IMG/VR virus record: IMGVR_UViG_3300032291_003063
Span: 5,963-69,962 of that record
From: a virus
DNA length: 64,000 nt
Direction: 5' to 3' (one strand)
Shown here piece by piece: positions 4,502 through 61,629 of the stretch. Position 1 is the first letter of the stretch. Every line of letters starts with the position of its first letter. The notes under the pieces were generated by a model. It saw only the letters and a program-made list of their open reading frames with translations, was not told the origin of the DNA and did no database searches. A program made the position numbers and the translations under genes.

Positions 4502-6262
4502 TTAGCCCTCACAAGCAACGCAATCGTTTTCAGTAGGAAACTGACTCTTTTGCACCTCTACAGAGATATTCTCTGCACGTTTCATAGCTTTACTTCTAAT
4601 ATAGTAGAGGGTCTTCATTCCTCTACTCCAAGCAGCTAAATGATCATCATGTAGCTTCTTTTTATTTACTTCAGGGGAATAAAATAAGTTTACGCTTTGT
4701 GATTGACAGATATCTTCTGTTCTATCCGCAGCTAACTCAATTACCCATCTTTGGTCTATTTCTTGTGCAGTCTTAAATACATCCTTGTCATGCTGACTAA
4801 GAAAATCTAAGTGCTGTACACTGCCCTCACTAGTAATAATATCCTTCCAAACTTCATCAGTATCCATATCATACTCTTGAAGTAGGTGCTCCAGGTACTC
4901 GTTCTTTAGAAGAGCTGTCCCTGATTTGGTCTTTTGAGTAAAGGCATTAGCAGTATAAGGATCATTACTGGGACTAGTATTACCACAAATAATACTACTA
5001 CTAGCATTGGGAGCAGGAGCAAGAAGATGGCTGAAGCGCCTATTATAACCCACTGCATCAGGAGCTGGACCACGTTCAGCACAAAGAATACTATCGGCTC
5101 TAAGAGCTTCCTTCTTAATGTGCCTGTAAATGTCCTTATTAAGTTTCTTAGCGAAAACGCTTTCAAATGCGACATTGTTCCTCTGGAAATATGCGTGGAG
5201 CCCCATTGCTCCTAGCCCGATACTACGCTCTCTTTCAGCACTATACTTTGCTTTATGTAGCTCAGGTGGGGCATTTTTAATAAAGTGAGTCAGAACGTTA
5301 TCCAGCATTCTGATAATGTCTGGAATAAAGTCTTCGTTGTCTTTCCAACTGGCATACTCTTCCACATTGACACTAGAAAGGCAGCATACTGCGGTTCTGT
5401 CTTCGTTTGAAGGAAGAACAATTTCAGTACATAGATTAGAGTGATGTACTTCGAGCCCTAGTTTTGTAAGCCACTCAGGCACTGCTCTATCTACAGCGTC
5501 CTTAAACATAATGTAGGGCTCGCCGGTCTCAACTCTGTTTTCCAGAATTTTAACCCAGATTACCTTAGCTGGAATTACTTTAACAACTTTTCCACTGTTA
5601 GGGTCAATTAGAGGCCAACTGTCGTCAAAGCCCGGAATTTCAGCAGCATTCTTTATGAGCTGCATAAACTTATCGGGAATAATTACAGCGTGATGAAGAT
5701 TAGTAGACTTTCTATTAATGTCTCCACCAGTCGGCTTTCTTATATCGAGAAACTCTTCAATCTCCGGATGGCTCACATCGAGGTACGTTGCGTAGCTGCC
5801 ACGGCGTGTAACTCCCTGAGAAAACGCTAGCATTTCAGCGTCTACTACCTTTATAAAGGGAATTACTCCTGTGGACTCTGACCCATGAGAAGTCTTAGAC
5901 CCAACACCACGAACGTCTCCCCAGTACCCTCCAATACCTCCACCAACGGAGCTTAGATAAGCATTTTCTTCGTAATGTCCTGTAATACCCTTTCGGCTAT
6001 CTGGTACATAATTTAGAAAACAACTAATCGGCAAGCCTCTTGTGGTTCCCCCATTGGAAAGAATAGGCGTGCTAAACATAAACCACAGATTACTAGCGTA
6101 ATCGTAAAGCCTTTGTGCGTGAGCATCATCGTCCGCAAAAGCCTTAGCGGCTCTTGCAAATGCGTCTTGGGGAGAAGTCTCTCCTGCTACTAGATACCTA
6201 TCCTTGACAGTTGCTATTCCAAAAGGAGATAGCAACTTATCCCTGTTGTAATCTATATTCAT
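4502..6262 (-). CDS. nrdA: Ribonucleotide reductase class Ia alpha subunit
   Basis: PISCF, SNLCTEI, CCLSS, APNASSS, C-terminal CVACEG. Confidence 0.95.
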   Translation of the reverse strand: MNIDYNRDKLLSPFGIATVKDRYLVAGETSPQDAFARAAKAFADDDAHAQRLYDYASNLWFMFSTPILSNGGTTRGLPISCFLNYVPDSRKGITGHYEENAYLSSVGGGIGGYWGDVRGVGSKTSHGSESTGVIPFIKVVDAEMLAFSQGVTRRGSYATYLDVSHPEIEEFLDIRKPTGGDINRKSTNLHHAVIIPDKFMQLIKNAAEIPGFDDSWPLIDPNSGKVVKVIPAKVIWVKILENRVETGEPYIMFKDAVDRAVPEWLTKLGLEVHHSNLCTEIVLPSNEDRTAVCCLSSVNVEEYASWKDNEDFIPDIIRMLDNVLTHFIKNAPPELHKAKYSAERERSIGLGAMGLHAYFQRNNVAFESVFAKKLNKDIYRHIKKEALRADSILCAERGPAPDAVGYNRRFSHLLAPAPNASSSIICGNTSPSNDPYTANAFTQKTKSGTALLKNEYLEHLLQEYDMDTDEVWKDIITSEGSVQHLDFLSQHDKDVFKTAQEIDQRWVIELAADRTEDICQSQSVNLFYSPEVNKKKLHDDHLAAWSRGMKTLYYIRSKAMKRAENISVEVQKSQFPTENDCVACEG

Positions 6263-7079
6263 TTAGTCTCCATTGTAAGTCCAGTACGTTGGACTGACCA
6301 ATTGCTTCTTCACAATAAGTTATTAAATCCATTAGCTCATAATTAACTAATAGTTGGTCTTTGTATTCGTTCAAAGTCTGGATATACTTGTAAGAACTAG
6401 GAATAGGACAAGCCGCATGAATATCGAAGGCGTCTCCATACTCCTCAATTAGCTTTACAGCTTTCTTGGGTCCAATACCTGTAATCCCTGGAATATTGTC
6501 TCCCTTGTCTCCAATCAAGCATTTATATGAGATATAGTGCTCCGGAGGTACATCGTAGTCCCAAGTCTCTAGAGTAGTCTCTTTTCTAGTAATATAAGAA
6601 AATCTACTCACATTCTCTCTAATAAGAAGGTCCCAGTCTCGGTCAGAACTAATAAGCCAGATAGTATCATAAGCAAACTTGTCATTGCTTCTAACAATCC
6701 AAGCTGCGATATCATCGGCCTCTACTCCCTTATATCTGAATACGGGAAACTCCTCGGAAAGCACCTCTAGAGTGCGCTCGTACTCTTCGAAAAATAGTTC
6801 GGCCTCTCGCTTTTCTTCTTCTGATTGAGCGTTAACTAGATCTTGTCTATTTGCCTTATATTCGGGAAAGATTTCTCGTCTAAAAGTGCTTCTGCCCCAA
6901 TCTGCTGCAATTACTATTGAGCCGCAGTTATAAGACTTTGCTAGTGACTTGACCGTATCTTTATACTCGGTAGCAAAAACTAGCTTCTTGCTATGCTTAT
7001 ACCTAAATGCTAGGTTTAAAGCATCTACAACCATCAAATTTCCTGAAGGTCTCTCTTTCATTGCATTTGCAAACTTCAT
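6237..7079 (-). CDS. 5'-3' flap exonuclease (T5 D15-like)
   Basis: VDALNLAFR, EYKANR, EADD, SSDRDW, GDKGDNIPGITGIGPK. Confidence 0.9.
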   Translation of the reverse strand: MKFANAMKERPSGNLMVVDALNLAFRYKHSKKLVFATEYKDTVKSLAKSYNCGSIVIAADWGRSTFRREIFPEYKANRQDLVNAQSEEEKREAELFFEEYERTLEVLSEEFPVFRYKGVEADDIAAWIVRSNDKFAYDTIWLISSDRDWDLLIRENVSRFSYITRKETTLETWDYDVPPEHYISYKCLIGDKGDNIPGITGIGPKKAVKLIEEYGDAFDIHAACPIPSSYKYIQTLNEYKDQLLVNYELMDLITYCEEAIGQSNVLDLQWRLNEYRLQQG

Positions 7080-23799: not shown

Positions 23800-25087
23800 A
23801 ATAAGTACCTACCCTGAGATTACGGGAGGTAAATGATGAGCCTTAAGTGCCTTATGGTTTAGCACCTTATCCAGTGAAGTTATATCACTATCTCATCAGA
23901 GCCGCACAATTTATATAGCGCAGGCTATAGCGCTTTAACACTTAGATACTCGACTAGCTCTACCACCACCTGTCTCCCGACAGTTCAAAGCCGCTAAGCT
24001 CTTATGATGTGCCTTCTAATCAACACTCTTTGGCTTTCGGCCTAGGAATGACTCCATTCTTTAGTGGAGTATTTGGCTCCTTACTCTAAGTGTAGGACAA
24101 GGCTTTTGATTTTTAAACGATTAGCCGAAGCATTTCTTTTTTCCAATAAAAAGCGTCTTGTGATAGACTATAATCTGCACTTAGGACACGCTCGTCCAGT
24201 AGCTTTCAGCTCTTTTGAAGCCAAAAATGCTACGCGCCCTGAATATCGTTCGGTTTTGCATCCCTACTAGAATGTTTGATGGCTCGATGTGCTATTGCCC
24301 ACCAACCCACTAAACTGGTACCCGCCCTAACCTGCTAAGCTCGGACTGAAGTACACTCGACAAGAACACTATATACCCTCAACTTATTGCAATCCATAAT
24401 TTGACCTTGCGGAGTCAAAAATCATAATCTGCCCGAGTATGACTGTCTGGTAAGCTATTGGGCTTTTACCCTCCTAAGAGAGCAGGGAGTTATTAGCTCC
24501 ACGCCTTGTCTGCGTGCTTAACCCTCTTACGAGGTCGAAACAGTTAGTGCAACCGTTTCTGTCACTGTATCACTACAGCTTTCGCCGCACGCGGCAATTA
24601 GACTTTTTAAGGCACAACGGAGAATTGTGACCAAAGAAGCCTAATTAATTAGGAACTTCCCGCAAGTAGTTTTCTATTCGCTGATACCGGATATAAAGAG
24701 CCGGCCGAGTCGAACAATAAAGAGTTACCACCAGCGTTTTCCTACTAACCGGAACTGGGGAAGAGCTCATCTAAGCATACTTACTAGAACAGTAGGTTCA
24801 TTAGCCAAACTGGTCGTTAGTGTGTAGAAATACTTTTACAAGCAGTTGCTAAACCACGGTAATGTGCCTTTGGCGGGATACCGGTCTTGGAAAGCCTATT
24901 GTTTTTCATCTACTTCAATAGTGGAGTAGTTTACTGTGGTCAAGTCCCGGATAAAGGCCTTACAGAGCCGGGGGTATATTACACAAGGTCCGCTTATGCA
25001 ATTCGCGGGCGAGCTACTCTAAATAGGTATTTATTAGATTTGCCTATTTATTACCGAGAGATTGGCTTTGCAGTCCTCACTCTCAAT
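23800..25087 (-). ncRNA. Candidate giant structured ncRNA (GOLLD/ROOL-class-like), about 1.3 kb
   Basis: Own sigma70 promoter and downstream hairpin terminator, no minus-strand ORF of 60 aa or more, many GNRA-capped hairpins. Confidence 0.7.
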
Positions 25088-25089
25088 AT

Positions 25090-25256
25090 AAGTATTATAT
25101 CCGATATTTCGGAAAAGTCAAGAACTTTTTTAGCTGTACCTCACGTATTCGGTACGAATGAATTCTAGAATTGCGACGACTTCGAGAGCCGGTTGGAAGT
25201 CGTATCCAGATCTTCAAGTATTATATCCGATATTTCGGAAAAGTCAAGAACTTTTT
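25090..25256 (-). promoter_or_regulatory. Two identical ~40-bp promoters (TTGACT-17-TATAAT) flanking a small structured spacer
   Basis: aagtattatatccgatatttcggaaaagtcaagaacttttt occurs at about 25090 and 25216. Confidence 0.85.
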
Positions 25257-25551
25257 AAAATTGAATTGGAATGATACTAAGAGTACCACCTGCTGAGTTC
25301 TGAATTACTGCAACAAAACTATTCATAGGAATCCTAATATTTAGTTTTTCGTTCGCTGCCATAGGCATTGAACCTGCTCCGTTAGTAGCCACAACAGTAG
25401 AATTACCTACTCGAATAAAACAAGCTGTGCTAGAGACTACTTGAATTTCCTCAAAAGGAATAGCTGTAGATCGAGCACTAGTCGCTCCAACTGTTAGAAC
25501 TTGTGCAGTACTAAAGTCATACTGGCGTGTATTATGTTCGAGATTACTCAT
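25255..25551 (-). CDS. Hypothetical beta-rich protein
   Basis: ORF with GGAG RBS before ATG 25551. Confidence 0.55.
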   Translation of the reverse strand: MSNLEHNTRQYDFSTAQVLTVGATSARSTAIPFEEIQVVSSTACFIRVGNSTVVATNGAGSMPMAANEKLNIRIPMNSFVAVIQNSAGGTLSIIPIQF

Positions 25552-25590
25552 TTTTGTCTCCATAAATCTTGAGACAAATGTCTCGTTAAT

Positions 25591-25667
25591 TGGTCGGGCA
25601 TGTAAGATTCAAACTTACGACCCTCGCATCCCAAATGCGATGCTCTATCAAGCTGAGCTAATGCCCG
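25591..25667 (-). tRNA. tRNA-Pro(TGG)
   Basis: Cloverleaf with encoded CCA. Confidence 0.9.
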
Positions 25668-25674
25668 TAATTAT

Positions 25675-25749
25675 TGGCACTCCCTGAAGGAATCGAACCC
25701 TCATCAACAGGGTAGAAACCTGATGCTCTTTCCATTGAGCTAAGGGAGC
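25675..25749 (-). tRNA. tRNA-Arg(TCT)
   Basis: Cloverleaf with CCA. Confidence 0.88.
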
Positions 25750-25750
25750 G

Positions 25751-25774
25751 TGGTATGCCGAGAGGGACTCGAAC
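25751..25774 (-). pseudogene. 3' fragment of a disrupted tRNA (T loop, acceptor strand, ACCA)
   Basis: gttcgagtccctc-tcggcat-acca; pairs with the 5' fragment at 26461-26486. Confidence 0.8.
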
Positions 25775-25779
25775 TTACC

Positions 25780-25854
25780 TGGTAGGCACGGCTGGAATTG
25801 AACCAGCATTAAATCAGTTATGAGCTGATGACTTTACCATTAAGTTACGCGCCT
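25780..25854 (-). tRNA. tRNA with CAT anticodon (elongator Met or Ile2)
   Basis: Cloverleaf atcag-ctCATaa-ctgat with CCA; 5' end overlaps the HNH stop codon. Confidence 0.85.
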
Positions 25855-26404
25855 AAAATCTATTGCTTTTACTTAGGTTATCTTTTTTAGCTAAATACTG
25901 TAAATTTTCCAAAACATGTAGCCCAGATACATTCTTCCCATTTAATGGTACTACATGATCCACTTGCATACCCTCTGGGCAGTTTCTATAAAATTCCTTA
26001 ATAGCCTCTAAGTTAGCCCAAGATACTGTTTTTAATTCTATAGAAGCTCGATACTCAGCTGATCTTGCTGGCTGCGTTTTCTTTGTTTGTGCATACTGGC
26101 AATTTTTACATTGACTATTTATACCCTGCCTGTTGGCTTGGTTTTTATGGAAATTATCAAAAGATATTACATTGTCGCACCCTGCGCAATATCTATCGTT
26201 GAATATTTCTGGTATGAATACTCTTAAATGCACACCCTTTGGTTTTCCTGGAAAATACTTACTAGTAAAAGAAGAGTAGGTACTTGCACTCCAAGAGTGT
26301 GCTCTGTACCCGTTAATTATAGCGCCAACGACACTTTTTTCTAAATATGTTGTTGGTACTGATAATTGTTCTAATTTTGATATAATATACTCTTCTAGTT
26401 TCAT
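25853..26404 (-). CDS. HNH homing endonuclease
   Basis: CAGC/CKNC, VDHVVPL..VSGLHVLENLQ..N; own promoter TTTACA-17-TATAAT, leaderless. Confidence 0.88.
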   Translation of the reverse strand: MKLEEYIISKLEQLSVPTTYLEKSVVGAIINGYRAHSWSASTYSSFTSKYFPGKPKGVHLRVFIPEIFNDRYCAGCDNVISFDNFHKNQANRQGINSQCKNCQYAQTKKTQPARSAEYRASIELKTVSWANLEAIKEFYRNCPEGMQVDHVVPLNGKNVSGLHVLENLQYLAKKDNLSKSNRF

Positions 26405-26460
26405 AAATATATTATACCAAGGTTAGAGTAGCTTGTAAAGAAAAATTTTTATAAATGGTT

Positions 26461-26486
26461 GGCTCTGACCGTTGAGCTACCGGCAT
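26461..26486 (-). pseudogene. 5' fragment of a disrupted tRNA (acceptor strand and D arm)
   Basis: atgccgg-ta-gctcaacggtcagagc. Confidence 0.8.
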
Positions 26487-26606
26487 AAAATTGGGAGTCG
26501 CTAGGTGGATCGAATAATTTCCGTCCGGCCCTGGCCGATTTTACGGCTCACGCTTCCGACTATATCCCATTGAAGGGCCTAGTTAGAGCAATCGCTCCGT
26601 TTTTAA

Positions 26607-26682
26607 TGGCTGGGGAGGTAGGGCTCGAACCTACTACCTTCTGATTCAAAGTCAGATGTTCAACCAGTTAAACTGCTCCCCA
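26607..26682 (-). tRNA. tRNA-Gln(TTG)
   Basis: Cloverleaf with CCA. Confidence 0.88.
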
Positions 26683-26683
26683 A

Positions 26684-26766
26684 TGGTGGGAAGCGGTGGT
26701 TACGCTCCACTCCCGCTAAGATGGGTTTTACAGACCCACTGCTGAAACTATCAGCTTTCACTTCCC
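26684..26766 (-). tRNA. tRNA-Tyr(GTA), atypical D and T loops
   Basis: tgggt-ctGTAaa-accca, CCA; T loop reads AGCGTAA. Confidence 0.75.
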
Positions 26767-26774
26767 ATAAACAA

Positions 26775-27227
26775 TGGCAAGGGCCGAGGCCTTCCCCGGC
26801 CCTCGAACGGCCAGCACGCTGACCGCGGGTAGTACTGCTATACTCCCTTTCGGGAAACGGACACCATAAAGGGCCGCAAGTACTACAGGCCGGAACCTGT
26901 AGGGGGCCGCAAGTAAACTTGGAGCGCGAATTGTTAGACGGTTAAAGCTCTTTCATCACCGTAAGTTTTATAACACAGAGCACTTTGGTCAGTCATTAAA
27001 TCGCCGTTCGTCAGACTGACAATTGAGAACGAGCGAAGCAAGAGCTGAGTCTGACTCGCGAGGCGGCGATTCAGCCCTGCCCCTCACGCCCGAAGCCGTG
27101 AGGGGGGTTATTTAAAAGGACGTGCCCGAAGACACGTCCCAACCAATCCGATCCGGGACTTTTGGCCCCGCGCGCTCGTTTGGTTATCCGAACCCTTGCG
27201 GGCCGGGAATTTCCGCTGCAGTGGCGC
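26775..27227 (-). ncRNA. Candidate structured ncRNA(s), about 450 nt
   Basis: No ORF; GC-rich hairpins with UUCG/GCAA/GAAA loops; ends in GCCA. Confidence 0.6.
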
Positions 27228-27301
27228 TGGAGCTGGCTAGGGGAATCGAACCCCTGTCGTCAGGTTGGAAGCCTGTAATAATACCATTATACTAAACCAG
27301 C
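27228..27301 (-). tRNA. tRNA-Gly(TCC)
   Basis: Cloverleaf with CCA. Confidence 0.88.
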
Positions 27302-27483
27302 AAATCTTTAAATACGTACTTAGGGTACTCTACCTTATTAGTCAGTGGAGACTCCTTAATCATAGCATAAACCACATCGGTAGGAGCTGCTTCAATCAAA
27401 CGAATAGCATCAGCAGCCGTTAAGTTCTTCTCAACAACGCTGCCTACTTGCTCTAGTCGAACAACTGTGTATTTATCAATCAA
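27292..27483 (-). CDS. Small hypothetical protein (leaderless, TTG start)
   Basis: ORF begins just downstream of TTGACT-17-TATAAT. Confidence 0.45.
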   Translation of the reverse strand: MIDKYTVVRLEQVGSVVEKNLTAADAIRLIEAAPTDVVYAMIKESPLTNKVEYPKYVFKDLLV

Positions 27484-27522
27484 GTATTATACTCCAAATT
27501 TTGAAAAAGTCAAGAACTTTTT

Positions 27523-27607
27523 TGGCGGAAGGTATGGGAATCGAACCCATTCTACTTATAGTAGTACAGATTAGCAATCTGCTGCATTACCGGCCTGCCC
27601 ACCTTCC
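27523..27607 (-). tRNA. tRNA-Ser(GCT)
   Basis: Long variable arm, CCA. Confidence 0.9.
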
Positions 27608-27679
27608 GTACCCAAGAAAAGAATCGAACTTTTATGTGCGCATCCACAATGCGCTGCTTTACCATTAAGCTACTCAGGC
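27608..27679 (-). tRNA. tRNA-His(GTG), A73, no G-1, incomplete CCA
   Basis: gcgca-ttGTGga-tgcgc. Confidence 0.8.
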
Positions 27680-27680
27680 A

Positions 27681-27756
27681 TGGCACTTCGGGAAAGACTC
27701 AAACTCTCATCTCTACGTTCGTAGCGTAGTGTTCTATTCTATTGAACTACCGAAGC
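27681..27756 (-). tRNA. tRNA-Arg(ACG)
   Basis: Cloverleaf with CCA. Confidence 0.88.
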
Positions 27757-27759
27757 ATC

Positions 27760-27835
27760 TGGAGGGCCTAATGGGATTTGAACCCAAAGCGAGGTGATTA
27801 AAAGTCACCTGCCATTCCCAGATGGCCCTAGGCCC
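27760..27835 (-). tRNA. tRNA-Lys(TTT)
   Basis: Cloverleaf with CCA. Confidence 0.85.
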
Positions 27836-27839
27836 GTAT

Positions 27840-27931
27840 TGGTTGTCCTACCCGGACTTGAACCGGGATCGTGCAGTCATCTACTGCTCATGCCTTATAA
27901 GGACACCGCTCTACCATTGAGCTATAGGACG
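27840..27931 (-). tRNA. tRNA with TAT anticodon (nominally Ile) and a long variable arm
   Basis: gtgtc-ctTATaa-ggcat; V-arm gcagt-agatg-actgc; CCA. Confidence 0.8.
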
Positions 27932-27935
27932 TTGT

Positions 27936-28011
27936 TGGTGCATTCCCGGGGAATTGAACCCCAACCTCATGCTTTTCAGACACATGTGCCGACCACGTAC
28001 ACCAGAAATGC
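27936..28011 (-). tRNA. tRNA-Phe(GAA)
   Basis: Cloverleaf with CCA. Confidence 0.85.
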
Positions 28012-28016
28012 GTAAA

Positions 28017-28070
28017 ATAGGGGCCAAGATTCGAACTTGGATAGTGCACTAGCGTCCCTTACGCCCCCTA
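28017..28070 (-). ncRNA. Mini tRNA-like element (acceptor stem plus T arm, no canonical anticodon arm)
   Basis: tagggg...ccaag-ttcgaat-cttgg-ccccta. Confidence 0.55.
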
Positions 28071-28073
28071 AAT

Positions 28074-28149
28074 TGGCGAACCTAACGGGAGTTGAACCCG
28101 CACAAACTAAATCGACAGTTTAGTGCTCTACCAGTTAAGCTATAGGTCC
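28074..28149 (-). tRNA. tRNA-Asp(GTC)
   Basis: Cloverleaf with CCA. Confidence 0.88.
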
Positions 28150-28278
28150 ATTGTTTAGGAAGATACATAAAATACCATTGATTGTTGGAGCAATCAGTTT
28201 CGCCCTCCTCCAAGAGGACCGACGCTATTCTAGCACGCTCGAAGTGAGTAGCGCCGTCTTATGTACCTACGTAAACAA

Positions 28279-28353
28279 TGGAGGGTGATCTCGGGATTGA
28301 ACCGAGGACACACGGATTAAGAGCCCGTTGCTCTACCTCTGAGCTAATCACCC
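28279..28353 (-). tRNA. tRNA-Lys(CTT)
   Basis: Cloverleaf with CCA. Confidence 0.9.
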
Positions 28354-28354
28354 C

Positions 28355-28431
28355 TGGAACACGCAATGGGACTCGAACCCATATCTACACATTGAAAGTG
28401 TGTTATCCTAGGCCAGCTAGACGATGCGTGC
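28355..28431 (-). tRNA. tRNA-Glu(TTC)
   Basis: Cloverleaf with CCA. Confidence 0.88.
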
Positions 28432-28432
28432 T

Positions 28433-28507
28433 TGGTGATAGGGGGTGGAGTCGAACCAACACAGCCCGGCGTATGAGACCGATGCACTACCGTTATGCTA
28501 CCCTATC
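28433..28507 (-). tRNA. tRNA-Met(CAT)
   Basis: tcggt-ctCATac-gccgg, CCA. Confidence 0.8.
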
Positions 28508-28509
28508 AT

Positions 28510-28587
28510 TGGAGTTGCGGGAGGGATTCGAACCCCCGGTTTTAGGGATTTGCAGTCCCTTGCATTGGGCCACTCTGCCACCGCAAC
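28510..28587 (-). tRNA. tRNA-Cys(GCA)
   Basis: Cloverleaf, U73, CCA. Confidence 0.9.
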
Positions 28588-28588
28588 A

Positions 28589-28663
28589 TGGTAGTTTCAC
28601 CAAGAATCGAACTTGGATCTAACGATTATCAGTCGTTTGCACTAGCCATTGTGCTATGAAACC
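28589..28663 (-). tRNA. tRNA-Ile(GAT)
   Basis: Cloverleaf with CCA. Confidence 0.9.
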
Positions 28664-28679
28664 ATACATCCAGCACCAA

Positions 28680-28871
28680 TTAGTCACCTCCTAGGCGGTG
28701 CTGGATTTCATTAATTCGTTGGTTAAAATACTTGAGCACATCTTCTAGTGCCCACCGCTCGTCATCAGCTAGATTGTTATCTGTCTGATTATCATAGTCA
28801 GCTTGCAAAAGCTGAGTAATTTTAAAAGCAATCTGCGCTCGTTCGTGAACAAAGACGTTTAGAGTTACCAT
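28680..28871 (-). CDS. Hypothetical protein
   Basis: ORF co-oriented with the tRNA array. Confidence 0.5.
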   Translation of the reverse strand: MVTLNVFVHERAQIAFKITQLLQADYDNQTDNNLADDERWALEDVLKYFNQRINEIQHRLGGD

Positions 28872-28873
28872 GT

Positions 28874-29104
28874 CTACGCTACTGATTGTGAATTCCCCTT
28901 ATGGGTATAAATACCATTGACAAGAAAACCAAGTAATCTTAGGTCTCTATGATTTTTAAATACCTGAGACTTTAGCGGTCCCCTCAAACGAGCGTATGCT
29001 TTGTCGAAGTCTACAACTTCCTCATCCCAATAGCCATAGAAATACTTAAGTCTATGGTTGGTATGCTCTCTAAGCAATGCGTTTTTCTCAATTTGAGAAT
29101 CCAT
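28874..29104 (-). CDS. Hypothetical protein
   Basis: ORF directly downstream of TTGACT-17-TATAAT. Confidence 0.45.
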   Translation of the reverse strand: MDSQIEKNALLREHTNHRLKYFYGYWDEEVVDFDKAYARLRGPLKSQVFKNHRDLRLLGFLVNGIYTHKGNSQSVA

Positions 29105-29138
29105 TATACTTTACTTTCCGAAAAAGTCAAGAACTATT

Positions 29139-29228
29139 TGGAGGAAGGCTGGTAGTGTCGATCTCCATACCGGTTAAAGTACCACCTGTTTTCAAGACAG
29201 GGCTGAGGGCCGCCTCAGTTAACCTTCC
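29139..29228 (-). tRNA. tRNA-Ser(TGA), atypical D and T arms
   Basis: cctgt-ctTGAaa-acagg, long V arm, CCA. Confidence 0.7.
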
Positions 29229-29364
29229 ATATTTAGTGTGGAACAGTCCCCGCTGCTCTGTATTACTGTTTGGTCACTGGGGTTTCATAGAGGTCGCGCC
29301 CGCATTCCAGGGTGGCCGACGTCGATCAGCCTCTATCTCTTCACTATCCAAACAAACCACAAAT

Positions 29365-29439
29365 TGGCACAAGTGGTAGGAATTGAACCTACTTCTCAAG
29401 GTTTTGGAGACCCGCGGATTTCCGTTTTCCTTCACTTGT
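29365..29439 (-). tRNA. tRNA-Trp(CCA)
   Basis: Cloverleaf with CCA. Confidence 0.82.
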
Positions 29440-29440
29440 A

Positions 29441-29515
29441 TGGCTGGCTAGGTAGGAATCGAACCTACAACCACTCGGTTAACAGCCGAGAGCTCTACCG
29501 TTAAGCTACTAACCA
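29441..29515 (-). tRNA. tRNA-Asn(GTT)
   Basis: Cloverleaf with CCA. Confidence 0.9.
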
Positions 29516-29522
29516 AAAAACT

Positions 29523-29604
29523 TGGTGCGGGTGAGAGGATTCGAACCTCCACGGTCGCCCGCCAGATTCTAAGTCTGGTGCGTCTACCATTTCGCCACAC
29601 CCGC
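29523..29604 (-). tRNA. tRNA-Leu(TAG)
   Basis: Cloverleaf with V arm, CCA. Confidence 0.92.
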
Positions 29605-29880
29605 ATAATATATATTTACTCGCCGTAACTTGTATCTCATATAAAGTTACTGATACTAACTGAATTAGTACTGCTACAGACATCGGACTCGATAGCTCGG
29701 ATTGAGAATAAAGACTATCTTTAGGGTCACTGTACACACACGAGTAAAACTGTAAGGGGTAGTATATTTATATGTAACTGCGCCCCAAACCTCGCGCTAT
29801 GTTACTAGCCAAGCCTATAGCTTGTCTCCCTCAAGAAAAAACATACTACCACATTAGAGCATGAAAGTCAAGAACTTTTT

Positions 29881-29956
29881 TGGTGGAGACTGCCGGGATC
29901 GAACCGGCCGCCTTCTGCGTGCAAAGCAGACGCTCTACCAAATGAGCTAAATCCCC
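29881..29956 (-). tRNA. tRNA-Ala(TGC)
   Basis: G3:U70 acceptor pair, CCA. Confidence 0.92.
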
Positions 29957-30092
29957 ATATCAGGAACTGGATACTTAGGCTTTCGTGAGGGGGCAGGCAT
30001 AAACCTAACCTGCCTCCGCCTCTTAAAAGCCTTCTTGTCTTCTAGAATTGTGGTAAAGACATAAATACCAGAGTTAGTAAAACTAATGTAAG

Positions 30093-30326
30093 TCACTTCT
30101 TCCAATTTCCCCAGTATTCATTGGCACGAACACGGATAAACGGCTTATTCTTTGCAGTCGTAGGAACAGTAAGCCAAGGATTTTGACCGTTGCGCCAAGC
30201 GTCAATCTTGTTGCCTAGAACAGATACCGTAGACCGCTCGGCACGAAGCGCTTGCCTCATTCCGTTGGTCATAGCCGAGTGAATCCCAGCAGACTTATAC
30301 TTCTTCCTTGTTCTCTTCTTACCCAT
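30093..30326 (-). CDS. Small basic hypothetical protein
   Basis: Strong AAGGAGA RBS. Confidence 0.6.
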   Translation of the reverse strand: MGKKRTRKKYKSAGIHSAMTNGMRQALRAERSTVSVLGNKIDAWRNGQNPWLTVPTTAKNKPFIRVRANEYWGNWKK

Positions 30327-30336
30327 CAGTCTCTCC

Positions 30337-30492
30337 TTACGAAATTGAGTCTTGTATTTTTACTATACCAAAAACAGTTAGTGCATATAGTAATATCATT
30401 GGTATTACTATAGGAAAAGTATAAATAAAATACCCTAGACAAACTACAAAGGGCGAAACACAAGCTAGTCCAATTAAAAGATTCTTATTCAT
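30337..30492 (-). CDS. Small membrane protein
   Basis: GGAG RBS before ATG 30492; two hydrophobic segments. Confidence 0.5.
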   Translation of the reverse strand: MNKNLLIGLACVSPFVVCLGYFIYTFPIVIPMILLYALTVFGIVKIQDSIS

Positions 30493-30507
30493 TTTTGCTC
30501 CAAAAAG

Positions 30508-30582
30508 TGGTACCCGAAGACGGGATCGAACCGCCGACATTCTCGGTGTAAACGAGACGCTCTACCTCTGAGCTATTCGGGC
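30508..30582 (-). tRNA. tRNA-Val(TAC)
   Basis: Cloverleaf with CCA. Confidence 0.92.
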
Positions 30583-30781
30583 ATTTCAAGAAATATACTC
30601 AGGACCCTTATACTACATGACCTGTGCCAAGTTGGTTCCCCGCTACGCCAAATCTCCAAGTTCAATCTCGGGATATTATTTTCTATTCGTCAAAATAGAG
30701 CGCGGTAGTCTTTTCGTTACCTAAATCTTGTTGACGCAAGTTTAAGCACTAGAGTATATTTCTAAAAATGCCATAAAAAAT

Positions 30782-30863
30782 TGGTACGGGCAGCCGGGGT
30801 CGAACCGGCACTCCTAAGAAGCGGATTTTAAGTCCGCCGCGTCTGCCTTTCCGCCATGCCCGC
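30782..30863 (-). tRNA. tRNA-Leu(TAA)
   Basis: Cloverleaf with V arm, CCA. Confidence 0.9.
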
Positions 30864-31061
30864 TTAATATGCTTTAAACCAGTCAATCACTTCACTAATA
30901 GAATTAAGAAAATAAGCTTTCTGCCTCGTTTCTTCTGCTGGGTTAAAAGACCAGATTGCAGTATTTTCCTCAATAACCATTCTTCGCGCATTACGAAGGG
31001 CCTGCAGGACGATCTGGTCCGTAATATCGTCGTTGATTTCAATTTGCATTTTGTTCCCCAT
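30864..31061 (-). CDS. Hypothetical protein
   Basis: Co-oriented ORF. Confidence 0.45.
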   Translation of the reverse strand: MGNKMQIEINDDITDQIVLQALRNARRMVIEENTAIWSFNPAEETRQKAYFLNSISEVIDWFKAY

Positions 31062-33934: not shown

Positions 33935-34010
33935 TGGTGCTGGTTGCAGGAATCGAACCCACGGCATCCACGTTACAAAGGTGGCGCTCTACCTACTGAG
34001 CTAAACCAGC
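33935..34010 (-). tRNA. tRNA-Thr(TGT)
   Basis: Cloverleaf with CCA. Confidence 0.88.
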
Positions 34011-57769: not shown

Positions 57770-58928
57770 CTTCTTTTTAAAGGCTAATACTTCCCAGCCT
57801 ATGATTGTTATGCGAGAAGGCACTAGTATTGATAGTGCTGAGCCCATACACACATATAAGCAGTACTATGAAAAGCTAGAAATAGTTAATCGGGCTATCA
57901 ATATGATAGTAGATGACGTGGCCGAAGTCCGTGCTAAAGTTGGTGAGCCAACGACTGCTACACGTAGAATTAATCGCACCAAGAAAGTAGCTGTTGACAG
58001 GCTTTTAAATGTGGAGCCTAATCCGTACCAGGATGTAAATACCTTTTTTAGAAATCTAATTCTAGACTATCTTATTGAGGGAAACATCTTTATTTACTAC
58101 GATGGTATGCACATGTACCATTTACCGGCCGATGACGTAACTATTCACCCAGACGAAAGAACATACGTGTTAAAGTATGAGTTTGCGGGGCGAATTGACT
58201 ACAAGCCGGAAGAGATTATTCATATCAAGGAAAATAGCTTTGAGTCTATCTACAGAGGAACGCCTCGGCTAAGAGCTTGTCTACGTAGCATGAAGCTACT
58301 AGACTCTATGAGAAATTTTCAGGATAACTTCTTCAAGAATGGAGCTGTTCCCGGTCTAGTAATTAAAACTCCGGCAACTCTGTCGAACAATATCAAGCAG
58401 CGAATGCTTGAGGATTGGGCTCAGAAGTACCGTCCCGGAGCAGGGGGTCGTCGCCCCCTAATTTTAGATGGCGGAATGGAACTTGAGGACATTAGCAAGC
58501 TAAACTTTAGAGACCTGGACTTTGAGGCCTCAATTGTCTCGAATGAGGAGACCATTTTAAAGGCTATTGGTGTTCCACCGATTCTTCTAAACAGTGGCAA
58601 CAATGCTAATCTTCGTCCTAATCACCGAATCTACTACCTAGAAACAATCATTCCAATCGTTAGAAAGCTAAACTTTGCTTTTGAGCGTTTCTTTGGGTTT
58701 AAAATTACCGAGGACGTTGCAAATGTTCCGGCACTTCAACCCGAACTTCAGGATCAAGCATCCTTTCTGAGTAGCCTAGTGAACGCCGGTATTCTAACGG
58801 CAAACGAAGCCCGCGAAGTTCTGGGACGTGACAACCTAGAGGGACATGATGATCTAAGAATTCCAGCCAATATTGCTGGTAGCGCCGCTAACCCGTCAGT
58901 GGGTGGGAGACCATCTAGTGGAGATTGA
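57756..58928 (+). CDS. Portal protein (HK97 type)
   Basis: FFKNGAVPG, IGVPPILL, TANEAR. Confidence 0.92.
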   Translation: MAWYNFFLKANTSQPMIVMREGTSIDSAEPIHTYKQYYEKLEIVNRAINMIVDDVAEVRAKVGEPTTATRRINRTKKVAVDRLLNVEPNPYQDVNTFFRNLILDYLIEGNIFIYYDGMHMYHLPADDVTIHPDERTYVLKYEFAGRIDYKPEEIIHIKENSFESIYRGTPRLRACLRSMKLLDSMRNFQDNFFKNGAVPGLVIKTPATLSNNIKQRMLEDWAQKYRPGAGGRRPLILDGGMELEDISKLNFRDLDFEASIVSNEETILKAIGVPPILLNSGNNANLRPNHRIYYLETIIPIVRKLNFAFERFFGFKITEDVANVPALQPELQDQASFLSSLVNAGILTANEAREVLGRDNLEGHDDLRIPANIAGSAANPSVGGRPSSGD

Positions 58929-61629
58929 TCTAAAACCGACAGAAGGCATGGCCCGAGAGGCTCAACGCGCCATCGACTGGCGTAAAGAAGGACACCCCGG
59001 AGGAACTCCGGTGGGCTGGGCCAGAGCCAGGCAACTAGTAAACCGACAGCAACTATCCCCTCGAACAGTCAAGCGTATGCACAGCTTTTTTAGCCGTCAC
59101 GAAGTTGATAAACAGGGAGAGGGCTTTTCTAGCGGACCAAACTACCCATCTAAAGGCCGAGTTGCCTGGGGACTTTGGGGTGGAGACCCCGGACAGACCT
59201 GGGCTCGCGCTAAATGTGCGGCACTAGACAAGTCCCTGAACGATTATGGAGTTTCATGCCCCACAGTTACTCATAATGCTGAACTTAACCTTGCTAATCA
59301 TTTAATTGCTATTGAGGAAGCTGGACTAGGTCCTGCAAATCCGAATGCTCCTGAGAATGAGTTCTGGGCTGAAAAAGCCTCCGAATGGAATATCTCTGAG
59401 CCCGAAGCACGCAATAGGCAATGCCAAAACTGTGAGTACTATAAAAATACCCCAAAGATGCTAGAATGTTTGAGGTCTTCAACGTTGAAGGCTTCTGATC
59501 TTCCAGTAACCCCAAAGTGGACCGATGTTAGTACCCCAGCTGGATACTGCACACAATTTGATATTACTTGTACAGCTACTAGAACCTGCTCTGAGTGGGA
59601 CCCTCAGGAGTTTGTCGAGGACGATATGGAGAAACTTATGAACAAAGTATTTACTTTGGACTCCACAATCAAGGCCATAGAAGATACTAGTACTGAGCTT
59701 CGAATTGAAGGGTATGCTAGTACAGATGCTCTTGATAGGGCTTCGGATAAAATTCTTCCATCGGCTTGGACTAAAGGAGGCCTAAACAATTATAAAAATA
59801 ATCCTATTCTTCTGTTTAATCACAATTATAGTGAACCTATTGGCAGAGTAACAGAAATTGCCACAGATGCAACGGGACTAAAGATCAAGGGTGTTATCAG
59901 CAAAAGCGCTGGAAGAGTTTATGACCTTGTAAAAGAGCGTATTCTTACAACTTTCTCGGTTGGATTTAAGATTAAAGACGCCGATTATGATAAGAGCAAC
60001 GATGGTTTAATCGTTAAGGATGCCGAACTTCTAGAGGTATCCGTAGTTACAATCCCATGTAATCAAGACGCAGTATTTTCTATTGCCAAGTCTTTTGACA
60101 ATATAGCGGATTACGAACAATATAAAAGTGTATTTGTTAACAACGAAGTAAAGACTTCCGCAGTAGCTACTACACAGAGCGGTGCCAAGGCACCAATGGA
60201 GAGAATAAAAATGGATTCTGTTGATTTCGCAGCTCTAGTTGAAAAGACTGCTAAAGACACTGCCGAAAGAATTGTAACTGCCCAAGCCGAAAAGGCTGCC
60301 GCAGAAAAGGCAATTGTTGACGCTGCTAATGCTAAGGCTGCTGAAGAAGCTGCTGCTACCGAAAAGCTTCTAACCGCAGTTACATCGGGCATGAAGAGCG
60401 GTGCTGAACGCCTTATCTCTGACATGGAGTCAAAGCTGGCTTCCAAGGAAGCCGACCTTTCTAGTATCATTGACGAAAAGATCAATGCTCTAAAGGAAGC
60501 TAGCGACGAAATGATGAAGATGCGTGATTCTAAGCGTGTATTTGCCGACCGTGGTCGTGGCAATGGCGACTGGAAGAGCGACAAGGGTCTCTACAATGAA
60601 GTAGAAGACGCTTATATTCTAGGTGTAGCTACCAACAAGGGTTGGAATACAGACTACGGTAAGGAAGTAATGGAAAAGGCCAACACTCAGTCGGGTGTTG
60701 TAGTTCCTACTGATGACTACGAGCGTGAAGTTTCGACAAATATTGAGCGTGATATTCAGTTGGGTCTCGTACTAGCCCCTCTATTCCGTGAGATTCAACT
60801 ACGTAGCGCAAACCTGATCGTTCCGATCCTACCTGACGCTGGTTACGCTGAAATCACTGCCAACCAAACTGGCTCTGGCTCAAGCCCAAATGGTAACTTA
60901 GAGGCCCGTGGTGCTGCCTTCGGTTCTCCGTACGGTGGTGTTACAATGTCTTCGGTGACTCTTAGCACTGTAAAGCTAGTAGCACACAGCTTCCTTGGAA
61001 ACGAAACAGAAGAAGATGCGATCATTCCTATTCTTCCTCTTATTCGTGAGTCCCTAATTCGTGCGCATGTTCGTGGTGTTGAAAACGCCATGCTGCTAGG
61101 AAACCACACTACTGGTGTTTACACCTCTGGCGCTTTCAACGGTCTGGTTCAGATTGCTTCGACCAGCTCACGCAACCTTCAATCTGCAACTGCACAAGCT
61201 TCCGAGTCTCTAACAGGGACTCAGCTGCTAAATGCACGTAAGAACATGGGTAAGTACGGCGTAAACCCACGTGACGTTATTTACATCGTATCACTAGGTG
61301 AGTACTACAACCTACTTAAGGATACTGCTTTCCAGGACTGGAACCAAGTTCAAAATGACGCAATCAAGATGACTGGTGAAGTAGGCATGATCTACGGCTC
61401 TAAGGTTATTGTTTGTGACGAGTTTGCAAGCCCGGCCGTTTCGAGGCACTATGCTGTTGCTGTTAATCCTCGTAACTTTGTTGTTCCTCGTCTACGTGGT
61501 GTAACCATTGAGAACGACTATCAGCCAAGAAACCAAAATACGGCAATTATTACAACTCAGCGTATTGGATTCTCTGAGGTAATTGCTGGTGCTACAGCGC
61601 TAACCAGCCTACAATACAAGGCTACTTAA
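58918..61629 (+). CDS. Single ORF: N-terminal accessory domains, HK97 prohead protease and major capsid protein
   Basis: Protease motifs IEGYAST, LFNHN, FSVGF, LLEVSVV from about 59638; coiled delta domain and HK97 capsid from about 60211; no in-frame stop. Confidence 0.85.
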   Translation: MEIDLKPTEGMAREAQRAIDWRKEGHPGGTPVGWARARQLVNRQQLSPRTVKRMHSFFSRHEVDKQGEGFSSGPNYPSKGRVAWGLWGGDPGQTWARAKCAALDKSLNDYGVSCPTVTHNAELNLANHLIAIEEAGLGPANPNAPENEFWAEKASEWNISEPEARNRQCQNCEYYKNTPKMLECLRSSTLKASDLPVTPKWTDVSTPAGYCTQFDITCTATRTCSEWDPQEFVEDDMEKLMNKVFTLDSTIKAIEDTSTELRIEGYASTDALDRASDKILPSAWTKGGLNNYKNNPILLFNHNYSEPIGRVTEIATDATGLKIKGVISKSAGRVYDLVKERILTTFSVGFKIKDADYDKSNDGLIVKDAELLEVSVVTIPCNQDAVFSIAKSFDNIADYEQYKSVFVNNEVKTSAVATTQSGAKAPMERIKMDSVDFAALVEKTAKDTAERIVTAQAEKAAAEKAIVDAANAKAAEEAAATEKLLTAVTSGMKSGAERLISDMESKLASKEADLSSIIDEKINALKEASDEMMKMRDSKRVFADRGRGNGDWKSDKGLYNEVEDAYILGVATNKGWNTDYGKEVMEKANTQSGVVVPTDDYEREVSTNIERDIQLGLVLAPLFREIQLRSANLIVPILPDAGYAEITANQTGSGSSPNGNLEARGAAFGSPYGGVTMSSVTLSTVKLVAHSFLGNETEEDAIIPILPLIRESLIRAHVRGVENAMLLGNHTTGVYTSGAFNGLVQIASTSSRNLQSATAQASESLTGTQLLNARKNMGKYGVNPRDVIYIVSLGEYYNLLKDTAFQDWNQVQNDAIKMTGEVGMIYGSKVIVCDEFASPAVSRHYAVAVNPRNFVVPRLRGVTIENDYQPRNQNTAIITTQRIGFSEVIAGATALTSLQYKAT

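Follow-up and report, generated by a model that had tools for sequence, protein, structure and literature searches.

The stretch of DNA analysed here (the window) comprises 64,000 nt of the IMG/VR virus record IMGVR_UViG_3300032291_003063 (record positions 5,963-69,962; record length 69,962 nt; CheckV completeness 67%). Within its array of tRNA genes, a gene for a tRNA with the anticodon CAT is split into two remnants. Between them lies a 682-nt cassette that consists of a promoter, a gene for a predicted HNH endonuclease and a second, complete tRNA(CAT) gene. The window encodes a NAD-dependent ligase, a family A DNA polymerase, a DnaB-like helicase, SbcCD, ribonucleotide reductase and terminase. 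Its DNA polymerase shares 45% identity with the enzymes of T5-like coliphages and Salmonella phages whose genomes are 108-118 kb long, and the source is therefore a distant, uncultured T5-like phage. The features of the locus are given below in order of position; X2 and X3 are public sequencing runs with near-identical DNA and L005 is a more distant relative.

25675 to 25749, minus strand: tRNA-Arg(TCT), called by ARAGORN; a conserved neighbour on the downstream side, which serves as the anchor of synteny with L005
25751 to 25774, minus strand: 3' remnant of the resident tRNA(CAT) gene, tRNA positions 53-76, as read from the sequence; homology to the X2 and X3 contigs starts at 25774
25775 to 25779, minus strand: filler GGTAA, 5 nt, from the CCA of the cassette tRNA to the 3' remnant, as given by the sequence and the position of the joint
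25775 to 26456, minus strand: the whole cassette, 682 nt in place of 22 nt, delimited by the joints of the X2 and X3 contigs and lower in G+C content than the tRNA flanks
25780 to 25854, minus strand: cassette tRNA(CAT), 'Met prime', 75 nt with an encoded CCA; found by ARAGORN and by the Rfam tRNA model (64.1 bits)
25853 to 26404, minus strand: HNH endonuclease gene of 183 amino acids (aa), assigned from its open reading frame (ORF), PHROG and Pfam matches, an alignment and an AlphaFold model
26411 to 26439, minus strand: sigma-70-type promoter, TTTACA, 17 nt, extended -10 TG-TATAAT, 11 of 12 matches
26457 to 26486, minus strand: 5' remnant of the resident tRNA(CAT) gene, tRNA positions 1-30, as read from the sequence; homology to the X2 and X3 contigs ends at 26457

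The 5' remnant, read on the minus strand from 26486 to 26461, consists of ATGCCGG, TA, a D arm (GCTC, an 8-nt loop and GAGC) and a C, and it continues to 26457, which is position 30 of the tRNA. The 3' remnant, read from 25774 to 25751, starts with G53 and contains the T loop TTCGAGT, the 3' strand of the T stem (CCCTC), the acceptor strand TCGGCAT, A73 and CCA. The acceptor stem formed by the two remnants has 7 bp, six of them Watson-Crick pairs and one a G-U pair. Both pieces and the stem were found as described in a first-pass annotation of the window, which had been made without database searches. The annotation had also reported that the anticodon arm and the 5' strand of the T stem are missing. 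The loss is real, but it is not quite complete: 4 nt of the 5' strand of the anticodon stem survive, and the part removed is positions 31-52 (22 nt, including the anticodon), which is absent from the window.

Exact scans of IMG/VR returned no match to the 5' piece and none to the 3' piece. A gapped acceptor-stem pattern gave three loci in IMG/VR. One of these (L002) is a tRNA-Lys(ctt) with the same acceptor stem and was rejected as unrelated, because it has another anticodon and nothing in its record matches the polymerase of the window. The other two (L003 and L004) contain no tRNA.

The history of the site was read from relatives. Contigs of public runs with near-identical DNA were compared with the window over 25300-27400. 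A contig of the run X1 contains the whole stretch without a difference; X1 is probably the source sample and so is not independent. The runs X2 and X3 belong to one study other than that of the probable source sample. In each of them one contig spans the site (4989 nt at a depth of 17.1 and 3198 nt at a depth of 14.1). These contigs agree with the window over 25300-25774 with 7 differences (98.5% identity) and over 26457-26845 with 16 differences and one gap (95.9%). They link position 25774 to position 26457, skipping 682 nt and having 22 other letters in place. On the tRNA strand the 22 letters read G31, the loop CTCATAA, CGGTT, the variable loop TGGTT and, in the T stem, GGGG. Added to the remnants of the window, they give a canonical 76-nt cloverleaf with the anticodon CAT, in which the anticodon stem is AACCG/CGGTT and the T stem is GGGGG/CCCTC with one G-U pair. 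The ends of the insertion, which the first-pass annotation had proposed to map in relatives, lie at tRNA positions 30/31 and 52/53 in these contigs.

The more distant relative L005 has a ligase that is 80% identical in amino acid sequence to that of the window, and its tRNA array is syntenic. An intact tRNA(CAT) gene (L005 6551-6626) is situated at the syntenic place, 1 nt before tRNA-Arg(TCT). When compared by eye, L005 6551-6580 matches the 5' remnant at 23 of 30 bases. L005 6603-6626 is the same as the 3' remnant except at positions 71 and 72, and from the 3' remnant through tRNA-Arg the two sequences are 94% identical over 102 nt. Compensatory differences, also found by eye, are present in the pairs 1-72 and 2-71 (L005 against the window) and in the pair 27-43 (L005 against the X2/X3 allele). 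As both partners have changed in each of these three pairs, the intact gene has been retained in a form that folds as a tRNA.

The segments 26457-26486 and 25751-25774 are halves of one tRNA gene. They are joined in the X2 and X3 contigs, and L005 has the syntenic intact ortholog. Their common origin had been supposed from the window alone, together with a CAT anticodon for the intact allele, and CAT is what the X2 and X3 contigs and L005 contain. A homolog of the HNH protein was not found in the 71,343-nt record of L005, and the record of the window has only this one. The lack of the 22 letters in the window, together with the presence of the intact gene in two cassette-free lineages at different distances, shows that the cassette-bearing state is derived. 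The state with an intact tRNA(CAT) gene is ancestral and is still present in relatives. The site is thus polymorphic for presence and absence, with the cassette in the window and X1 and an intact site in X2, X3 and L005.

These comparisons bear on the view that the HNH protein is a resident, non-mobile nuclease, involved in host DNA breakdown, repair or packaging, and that the phages differ here through ordinary recombination or loss. Many phage HNH proteins have packaging or housekeeping roles, and the present family has no experimental annotation, its members being mostly called 'hypothetical protein'. However, the 22 letters of X2 and X3 are not in the window, so that the cassette-free state cannot come from the window by deletion, and the more distant L005 is also intact and without the HNH gene. 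The gene is, moreover, patchily distributed, has a lower G+C content and is served by a promoter of its own; these are the hallmarks of a free-standing homing-endonuclease gene. A resident nuclease is accordingly considered improbable.

X4 is a run of the study to which the probable source belongs. None of its contigs matches 25797-26435, and none joins the two sides of the site. A 376-nt contig of X4 diverges from the window precisely at 26486, where the split tRNA has its 5' end, and a 151-nt contig does so at 25758, inside the 3' acceptor strand. Both continue into unlike sequence. The ends of these contigs may represent a third allele at the split tRNA site, although nothing is shown by them alone.

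Promoter, HNH gene and tRNA(CAT) together form a single discrete insert. It has a G+C content of about 0.33-0.39, as against 0.44-0.52 in the flanking tRNA genes; that of the genome is about 0.40. Among the 7 promoter-like sites that 25500-27400 contains (shuffled sequences gave a mean of 3.1), the strong promoter of the cassette ranks first. It is preceded by an A/T-rich stretch, and its -10 box ends 6 nt before the ATG at 26404. The left junction of the cassette reads AACC-A, followed by the A/T-rich stretch and then by the -35 box. There is no Shine-Dalgarno sequence before the ATG in the sequence read, and the lack of a ribosome-binding site predicts a leaderless or nearly leaderless mRNA. 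At its other end the gene overlaps the cassette tRNA, the first two bases of which (25854 and 25853) are the A and G of the TAG stop codon. The promoter, the HNH gene and the CAT tRNA overlapping its stop were all located where the first-pass annotation had placed them. No ORF of at least 60 aa other than the HNH gene is present on the coding strand of the 682 nt, and hence no recombinase gene. The sequence of the cassette region contains no duplicated part of the resident tRNA.

Some bacterial and phage tRNA genes are known to contain group I introns with homing-endonuclease genes, and the remnants might on that basis be taken for exons of a functional tRNA, to be joined by removal of a group I intron or by other splicing, with the HNH protein as the product of an intron-encoded gene. 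No intron family model matches in 24500-31000 at E <= 1. The two pieces, if joined, would be without positions 31-52, including the anticodon, and the interval is filled by the promoter, the ORF and the complete tRNA, so that a ribozyme core would not fit. A group I intron, or a split but functional tRNA, was ruled out by the absent intron match and the 22 missing nucleotides, and splicing in any form has a negligible probability here.

The cassette tRNA scores as well as the neighbouring tRNAs with the Rfam model. It has a canonical cloverleaf structure and, like the destroyed gene, a CAT anticodon. Its sequence is 64-68% identical to the other CAT tRNAs examined and 67% identical to the resident ortholog; at this level of likeness it is a different gene and not a copy of the resident. 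Over positions 27-62, about 11 of 36 differ between the cassette tRNA and the resident (by eye), including the T loop, which is TTCAATT in the former and TTCGAGT in the latter. In the acceptor stem both tRNAs have the pair C4-G69, and the pair next to it is C5-G68 in the resident and G5-U68 in the cassette tRNA. Pairs of the 4-69 and 5-68 type matter to TilS in E. coli. Two CAT tRNAs are left in the carrier (25780-25854 and 28433-28507), and L005 likewise has two (5151-5225 and 6551-6626).

The cassette itself was not encountered elsewhere in the collections that were searched. DNA searches of 25500-26800 against cultured phages gave only short matches to tRNAs and to the HNH domain, none covering at least 80% of the query. 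A pattern for the cassette tRNA had 0 matches in IMG/VR. In the JGI metagenome collection no second carrier of the cassette was found: one scan gave 0 matches and the other a single locus (L087) with 29% identity.

The HNH ORF is not in frame with any host gene and does not lie within an intron or an intein. The protein has, in order, an N-terminal helical (winged-helix-like) part, a CxxC...CxxC zinc ribbon with the cysteines C73, C76, C99 and C102, and a C-terminal HNH motif that reads VDH(I/V)(I/V)PL.G...GLH...NLQYL....N..K.N. In an alignment of 24 homologs, including the protein of the window, D149-H150 and N167 are invariant (24/24), and N176, K179 and N181 are nearly invariant. The protein of the window is full length and keeps all 21 invariant columns of this alignment. 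The HNH gene is thus intact.

The PHROG family 1035, 'endonuclease VII', is matched with an E value of 7.3e-15. A profile of the family finds the HNH domain of ZRANB3 in the PDB with an E value of 6.5e-4, and Pfam HNH (PF01844) matches 10 of the 24 family members at E <= 0.01, the best at 4.7e-4. There is no GIY-YIG family among the Pfam and PHROG matches of the protein. In the AlphaFold model, which has a predicted local distance difference test score (pLDDT) of 89, residues 117-183 align weakly by VIA-align with Cas8-HNH, the HNH domains of Cas9 and Gme, McrA and colicin E7 (Z 2.0-3.5). These alignments comprise 47-58 residues with a root mean square deviation (rmsd) of about 3-4 Å. On the basis of its motif and profile matches, the cassette protein is accepted as a probable HNH-type nuclease.

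Relatives of the protein are common. In a large protein collection, 218 of 240 candidates are HNH homologs at E <= 1e-3. Five of them, from ENA/Logan assemblies (P0002-P0006), are full-length proteins that are 63-81% identical and share the conserved N-terminus MKLEEYI. In a scan of IMG/VR, relatives are encoded at 582 of 600 pattern matches, of which the best 80 loci were retained. There are tRNA genes in 13 of these 80, and in 9 of the 12 best-matching loci the homolog is located in a tRNA array and on the tRNA strand. Most of the homologs examined have their own promoter, TTGA...TATAAT, directly after the ACCA of the upstream tRNA. In three loci (L014, L018 and L035) a tRNA begins 0-2 nt after the stop codon of the homolog or overlaps it, as in the window. 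Searches for loci with the HNH protein alone or with the downstream 102-aa ORF alone found no relatives, and no T5-like phage is among the matches listed (the best 40 of 64 records) of a tblastn search with the HNH protein. Two HNH-domain homologs, at L020 1532-2314 and L037 2027-2710, lie directly downstream of genes called by ARAGORN as transfer-messenger RNA (tmRNA).

Six homologs have a called tRNA that ends no more than 100 nt before their ATG. In four of the six this tRNA is a CAT tRNA (L007, L008, L023 and L075), as against 10 of 105 tRNAs overall, counted in these loci, L005 and the window. At L017 (2106-2945), a homolog that is 37% identical over residues 67-183 has an intact tRNA upstream. 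Its stop codon is directly followed by an orphan tRNA 3' end (T loop, 3' strands and ACCA) that has no 5' partner. This remnant begins next to GTTCGAGTC, as does that of the window. To judge by its sequence, L017 may be a second case in which a tRNA-carrying cassette of the HNH family has overwritten part of a resident tRNA gene. As a T-loop word, TTCGAGTC is found in the gene that was destroyed, in the remnant at L017 and in all four of the CAT tRNAs that precede homologs. As it also occurs in 24 of 105 tRNAs, and in 6 of 10 CAT tRNAs, it is only a lead.

The structural part of the inference drawn in the first-pass annotation is borne out: the locus has a self-contained unit of promoter, HNH gene and tRNA(CAT) that is not in the nearest relatives. 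Its functional part, in which the HNH protein would cleave the intact tRNA gene, the tRNA of the cassette would be a resistant substitute and the unit would spread by homing, is plausible; what points to it indirectly is the occurrence of the HNH family in tRNA arrays, above all next to CAT tRNAs, and the tRNA 3' remnant at L017. On the analysis presented here, a free-standing HNH homing cassette has probably replaced the core of its probable target, tRNA(CAT), and delivers a substitute tRNA.

The four CAT tRNAs among six close upstream neighbours are also what speaks against a second account, in which the HNH protein has its targets elsewhere, in T loops as for SegB of phage T4 or in a neighbouring gene. 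The loss of tRNA(CAT) would then be collateral damage and the cassette tRNA a hitchhiker, and the common anticodon would be due to coincidence or to later selection against lethal insertions, with no built-in replacement. Several features of the locus fit such an account. The junctions, with 22 nt lost and 5 filler bases, are typical of untidy repair. The array is much rearranged between the window and L005, which points to a recombination hot spot, and the homologs adjoin tRNAs of many anticodons, their neighbours also including tRNAs for Ala, Leu, Cys, Ser, Gly and Trp. SegB, according to its report, has nine different tRNA genes as substrates and takes the tRNA genes on its flanks along with it (PMC2330249). 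Nevertheless, the destroyed and the delivered gene have one and the same anticodon, and the phage retains exactly two working CAT tRNAs, as does L005. A target elsewhere with a hitchhiking tRNA is possible, but we hold it to be rather unlikely.

Several further observations weigh against the reading of the locus as an HNH homing cassette that delivers a substitute. The identical anticodon of the destroyed and the cassette tRNA could be a coincidence, with a chance of roughly 1 in 10. The count of four in six does not represent independent events, since L008 and L023 have a common leader sequence, and the ends of the ORFs were examined in 18 of the 80 loci. The CAT tRNAs upstream of the homologs at L007, L008, L023 and L075 are intact and have the TTCGAGTC T loop of the destroyed gene, so that they would be cleavable under a simple rule by which the T loop equals the target. 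The cassette has been seen in one lineage only. The nearest named matches of both CAT tRNAs are phage genes annotated as tRNA-Met, names that are the annotations of others and may only restate the CAT anticodon. As to the nuclease, Pfam HNH (PF01844) matches the protein of the window with 16.4 bits (E 0.01), below its cut-off of 21.4. A Foldseek search with the model gave no match at E <= 0.001, most of the weak rows being HNH domains. No VIA-align Z score is above 4.1, the value with which residues 1-67 weakly resemble the winged helix of PerR.

If the favoured reading of a homing cassette is correct, the HNH protein would, in a mixed infection, cut or nick the intact tRNA(CAT) allele of cassette-free phages near the region of the anticodon arm and the T arm. 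The break would be repaired from the cassette-bearing genome, with the flanking tRNA genes serving as homology arms, and the cassette would thereby be copied in. The carrier would be immune because its own site is split and because the cassette tRNA differs at the 11 or so of 36 positions across the site. With the cassette tRNA, the phage would keep two working CAT tRNAs, making the insertion cheap for it. Once RNase P had processed the cassette tRNA at its 5' end, the HNH mRNA would be left with only the first base of its stop codon. Such a loss of the stop codon could hold the level of the nuclease low, as has been proposed for T4 segB.

The first entry of the cassette into the lineage probably occurred by illegitimate repair, as the untidy junctions suggest, from a diverged donor in which the HNH gene lay between two tRNA genes. 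It may be guessed that the left junction, AACC-A, reflects a microhomology of 3-5 nt between the anticodon stem of the resident and the ACCA end of the upstream tRNA of the donor, because an A/T-rich stretch follows the ACCA of the upstream tRNA in the homolog loci too.

The array in which the cassette is situated has 22 minus-strand tRNA genes at 25591-30863 by ARAGORN, with one more at 33935, and Rfam adds a tRNA-Trp(CCA) at about 29368-29439. The order of the tRNAs differs between the window (25591-30863) and L005 (1638-6702), Lys(ctt), Pro(tgg) and Gln(ttg) being placed differently. Ser(tga) and a canonical Tyr(gta) are in the array of L005 and missing from that of the window. At 26684-26766 on the minus strand, the window has a tRNA-like gene that ends in ACCA and whose anticodon arm (loop CTGTAAA, anticodon GTA) resembles that of the L005 tRNA-Tyr. 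The acceptor stem of this gene is 8 bp long and its T stem 4 bp; the T loop is atypical and the D arm odd. ARAGORN calls it as 'Phe(aaa)' at a lowered threshold only, and it is not in the Rfam list. A tRNA of 92-94 nt that combines the anticodon TAT with a long variable arm is conserved in the window (27840-27931, minus strand), L005 (5906-5997), L007 (4231-4322) and L010 (1123-1216); tRNAs that read Ile codons are not usually built in this way.

Between tRNA-Gly(TCC) and the Tyr-like tRNA there is a non-coding stretch of 457 nt (26771-27227, minus strand) with a G+C content of 0.52-0.60. It forms many hairpins capped by tetraloops, with a minimum free energy (MFE) of -189 kcal/mol (z -3.4), and 0 of 100 shuffled sequences fold as well. 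No Rfam family matches it at E <= 1 except for a far sub-threshold match to sX12. The stretch is not in L005, where tRNA-Tyr comes directly after tRNA-Gly, and is present with several indels in X2, X3 and X4. It may be an unknown structured RNA. The spacer from tRNA-Gln to the 5' remnant (26487-26606, minus strand) ends in what by eye looks like a decayed 3' part of a tRNA, reading TTCGATCC, 12 nt, and then CCCA. This may be another dead tRNA in the same hot spot. Away from the array, a 918-aa ORF at 58873-61629 on the plus strand matches both head-maturation-protease and major-head-protein PHROGs and appears to encode a fused protease and capsid protein.

SegB of phage T4 is a free-standing GIY-YIG homing endonuclease encoded in a tRNA cluster. 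As described in its report, it recognises 27 bp that include a T-loop motif, cleaves tRNA genes of T2L at their 3' ends and shows nearly 100% inheritance along with the tRNA genes that flank it (PMC2330249). In a study that also mentions endonucleases of T5 in the T5 tRNA cluster, homologs of segB are reported to be significantly co-localised with tRNA genes (PMC13096335). The cassette HNH gene resembles segB in being a free-standing endonuclease gene packed among phage tRNA genes. The target of SegB, by the same accounts, is inside tRNA genes of related phages without segB, and the same type of target is likely for the HNH protein. The flanking tRNA genes of segB, too, travel along and replace those of the recipient. 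In both cases the end of the ORF abuts a tRNA gene, so that processing of the tRNA would cut the mRNA at the stop codon; the authors of the segB report proposed such processing at segB/tRNA-Arg as a brake on the expression of the nuclease (PMC2330249).

SegB has, however, the GIY-YIG fold, whereas the cassette protein is of the HNH type with a zinc ribbon. As the catalytic folds differ, the HNH protein is not a relative of SegB. Furthermore, segB is located between intact tRNA genes, whereas the cassette lies inside a tRNA gene, both ends of which are left as remnants, and the tRNA that accompanies it has the anticodon of the destroyed gene. What is new relative to intronless homing of the SegB type is thus the insertion inside a tRNA gene and the same-anticodon tRNA that is brought along. 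The endonuclease ORFs of T5 are similar to the cassette gene in lying within the tRNA cluster of a T5-type phage, the phage type of the window, and we know of no report in which such a gene splits a tRNA gene.

T4 MobE and the I-HmuI-type enzymes are, like the presumed product of the cassette, phage HNH homing endonucleases, and MobE is described as free-standing and as mobilising flanking DNA (PMC2790892). Their targets, as described there, are in contrast protein-coding genes, namely the nrdB region and DNA polymerase (PMC2790892). The cassette protein differs from them also in that its HNH motif is C-terminal, after a helical domain and a zinc ribbon. Islands and prophages mobilised by integrases insert into tRNA genes and restore the 3' end. 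The cassette is similar to these in being an element in a tRNA gene, where the function of the tRNA would be kept by sequence brought in. It differs in having no integrase and no duplicated att core. Nor is the resident tRNA restored; a separate, complete and unrelated tRNA gene apparently replaces it.

A search of open-access papers and bioRxiv for earlier descriptions of a homing endonuclease that splits a tRNA gene, whether or not a substitute is supplied, found none. The usual view of free-standing homing endonucleases is that a position between genes or in self-splicing elements keeps them from doing harm. The present locus offers a natural before/after pair in which a homing-type cassette has knocked out its host gene and apparently compensates with a replacement of the same anticodon. 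It is a concrete case, for which the probable target site, both alleles and both junctions are known. It bears on the reshuffling of phage tRNA arrays by endonuclease drive, and on the way in which a selfish element may offset the cost of a disruptive insertion. With it, the SegB paradigm, which comes from GIY-YIG enzymes in T4-like phages, would also take in T5-like phages and their uncharacterised HNH/zinc-ribbon family. Phage tRNAs, as reported, can act as spare parts against host defences that cut tRNAs (PMC13096335), and a swapping of tRNA alleles between phages would bear on the arms race with such tRNA-targeting defences.

A wider proposal, which we put forward tentatively and consider doubtful, is that the HNH family is a selfish module for swapping tRNA genes, which homes into the tRNA(CAT) genes and other tRNA genes of competing phages, destroys the resident gene and installs a linked, cleavage-resistant tRNA with the same anticodon. 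If this were true, the L017 remnant would be a second, independent footprint of such swapping. The tRNA alleles of phage arrays would turn over by endonuclease drive and not by point mutation, and cassettes of this kind could spread defence-resistant tRNA variants among phages.

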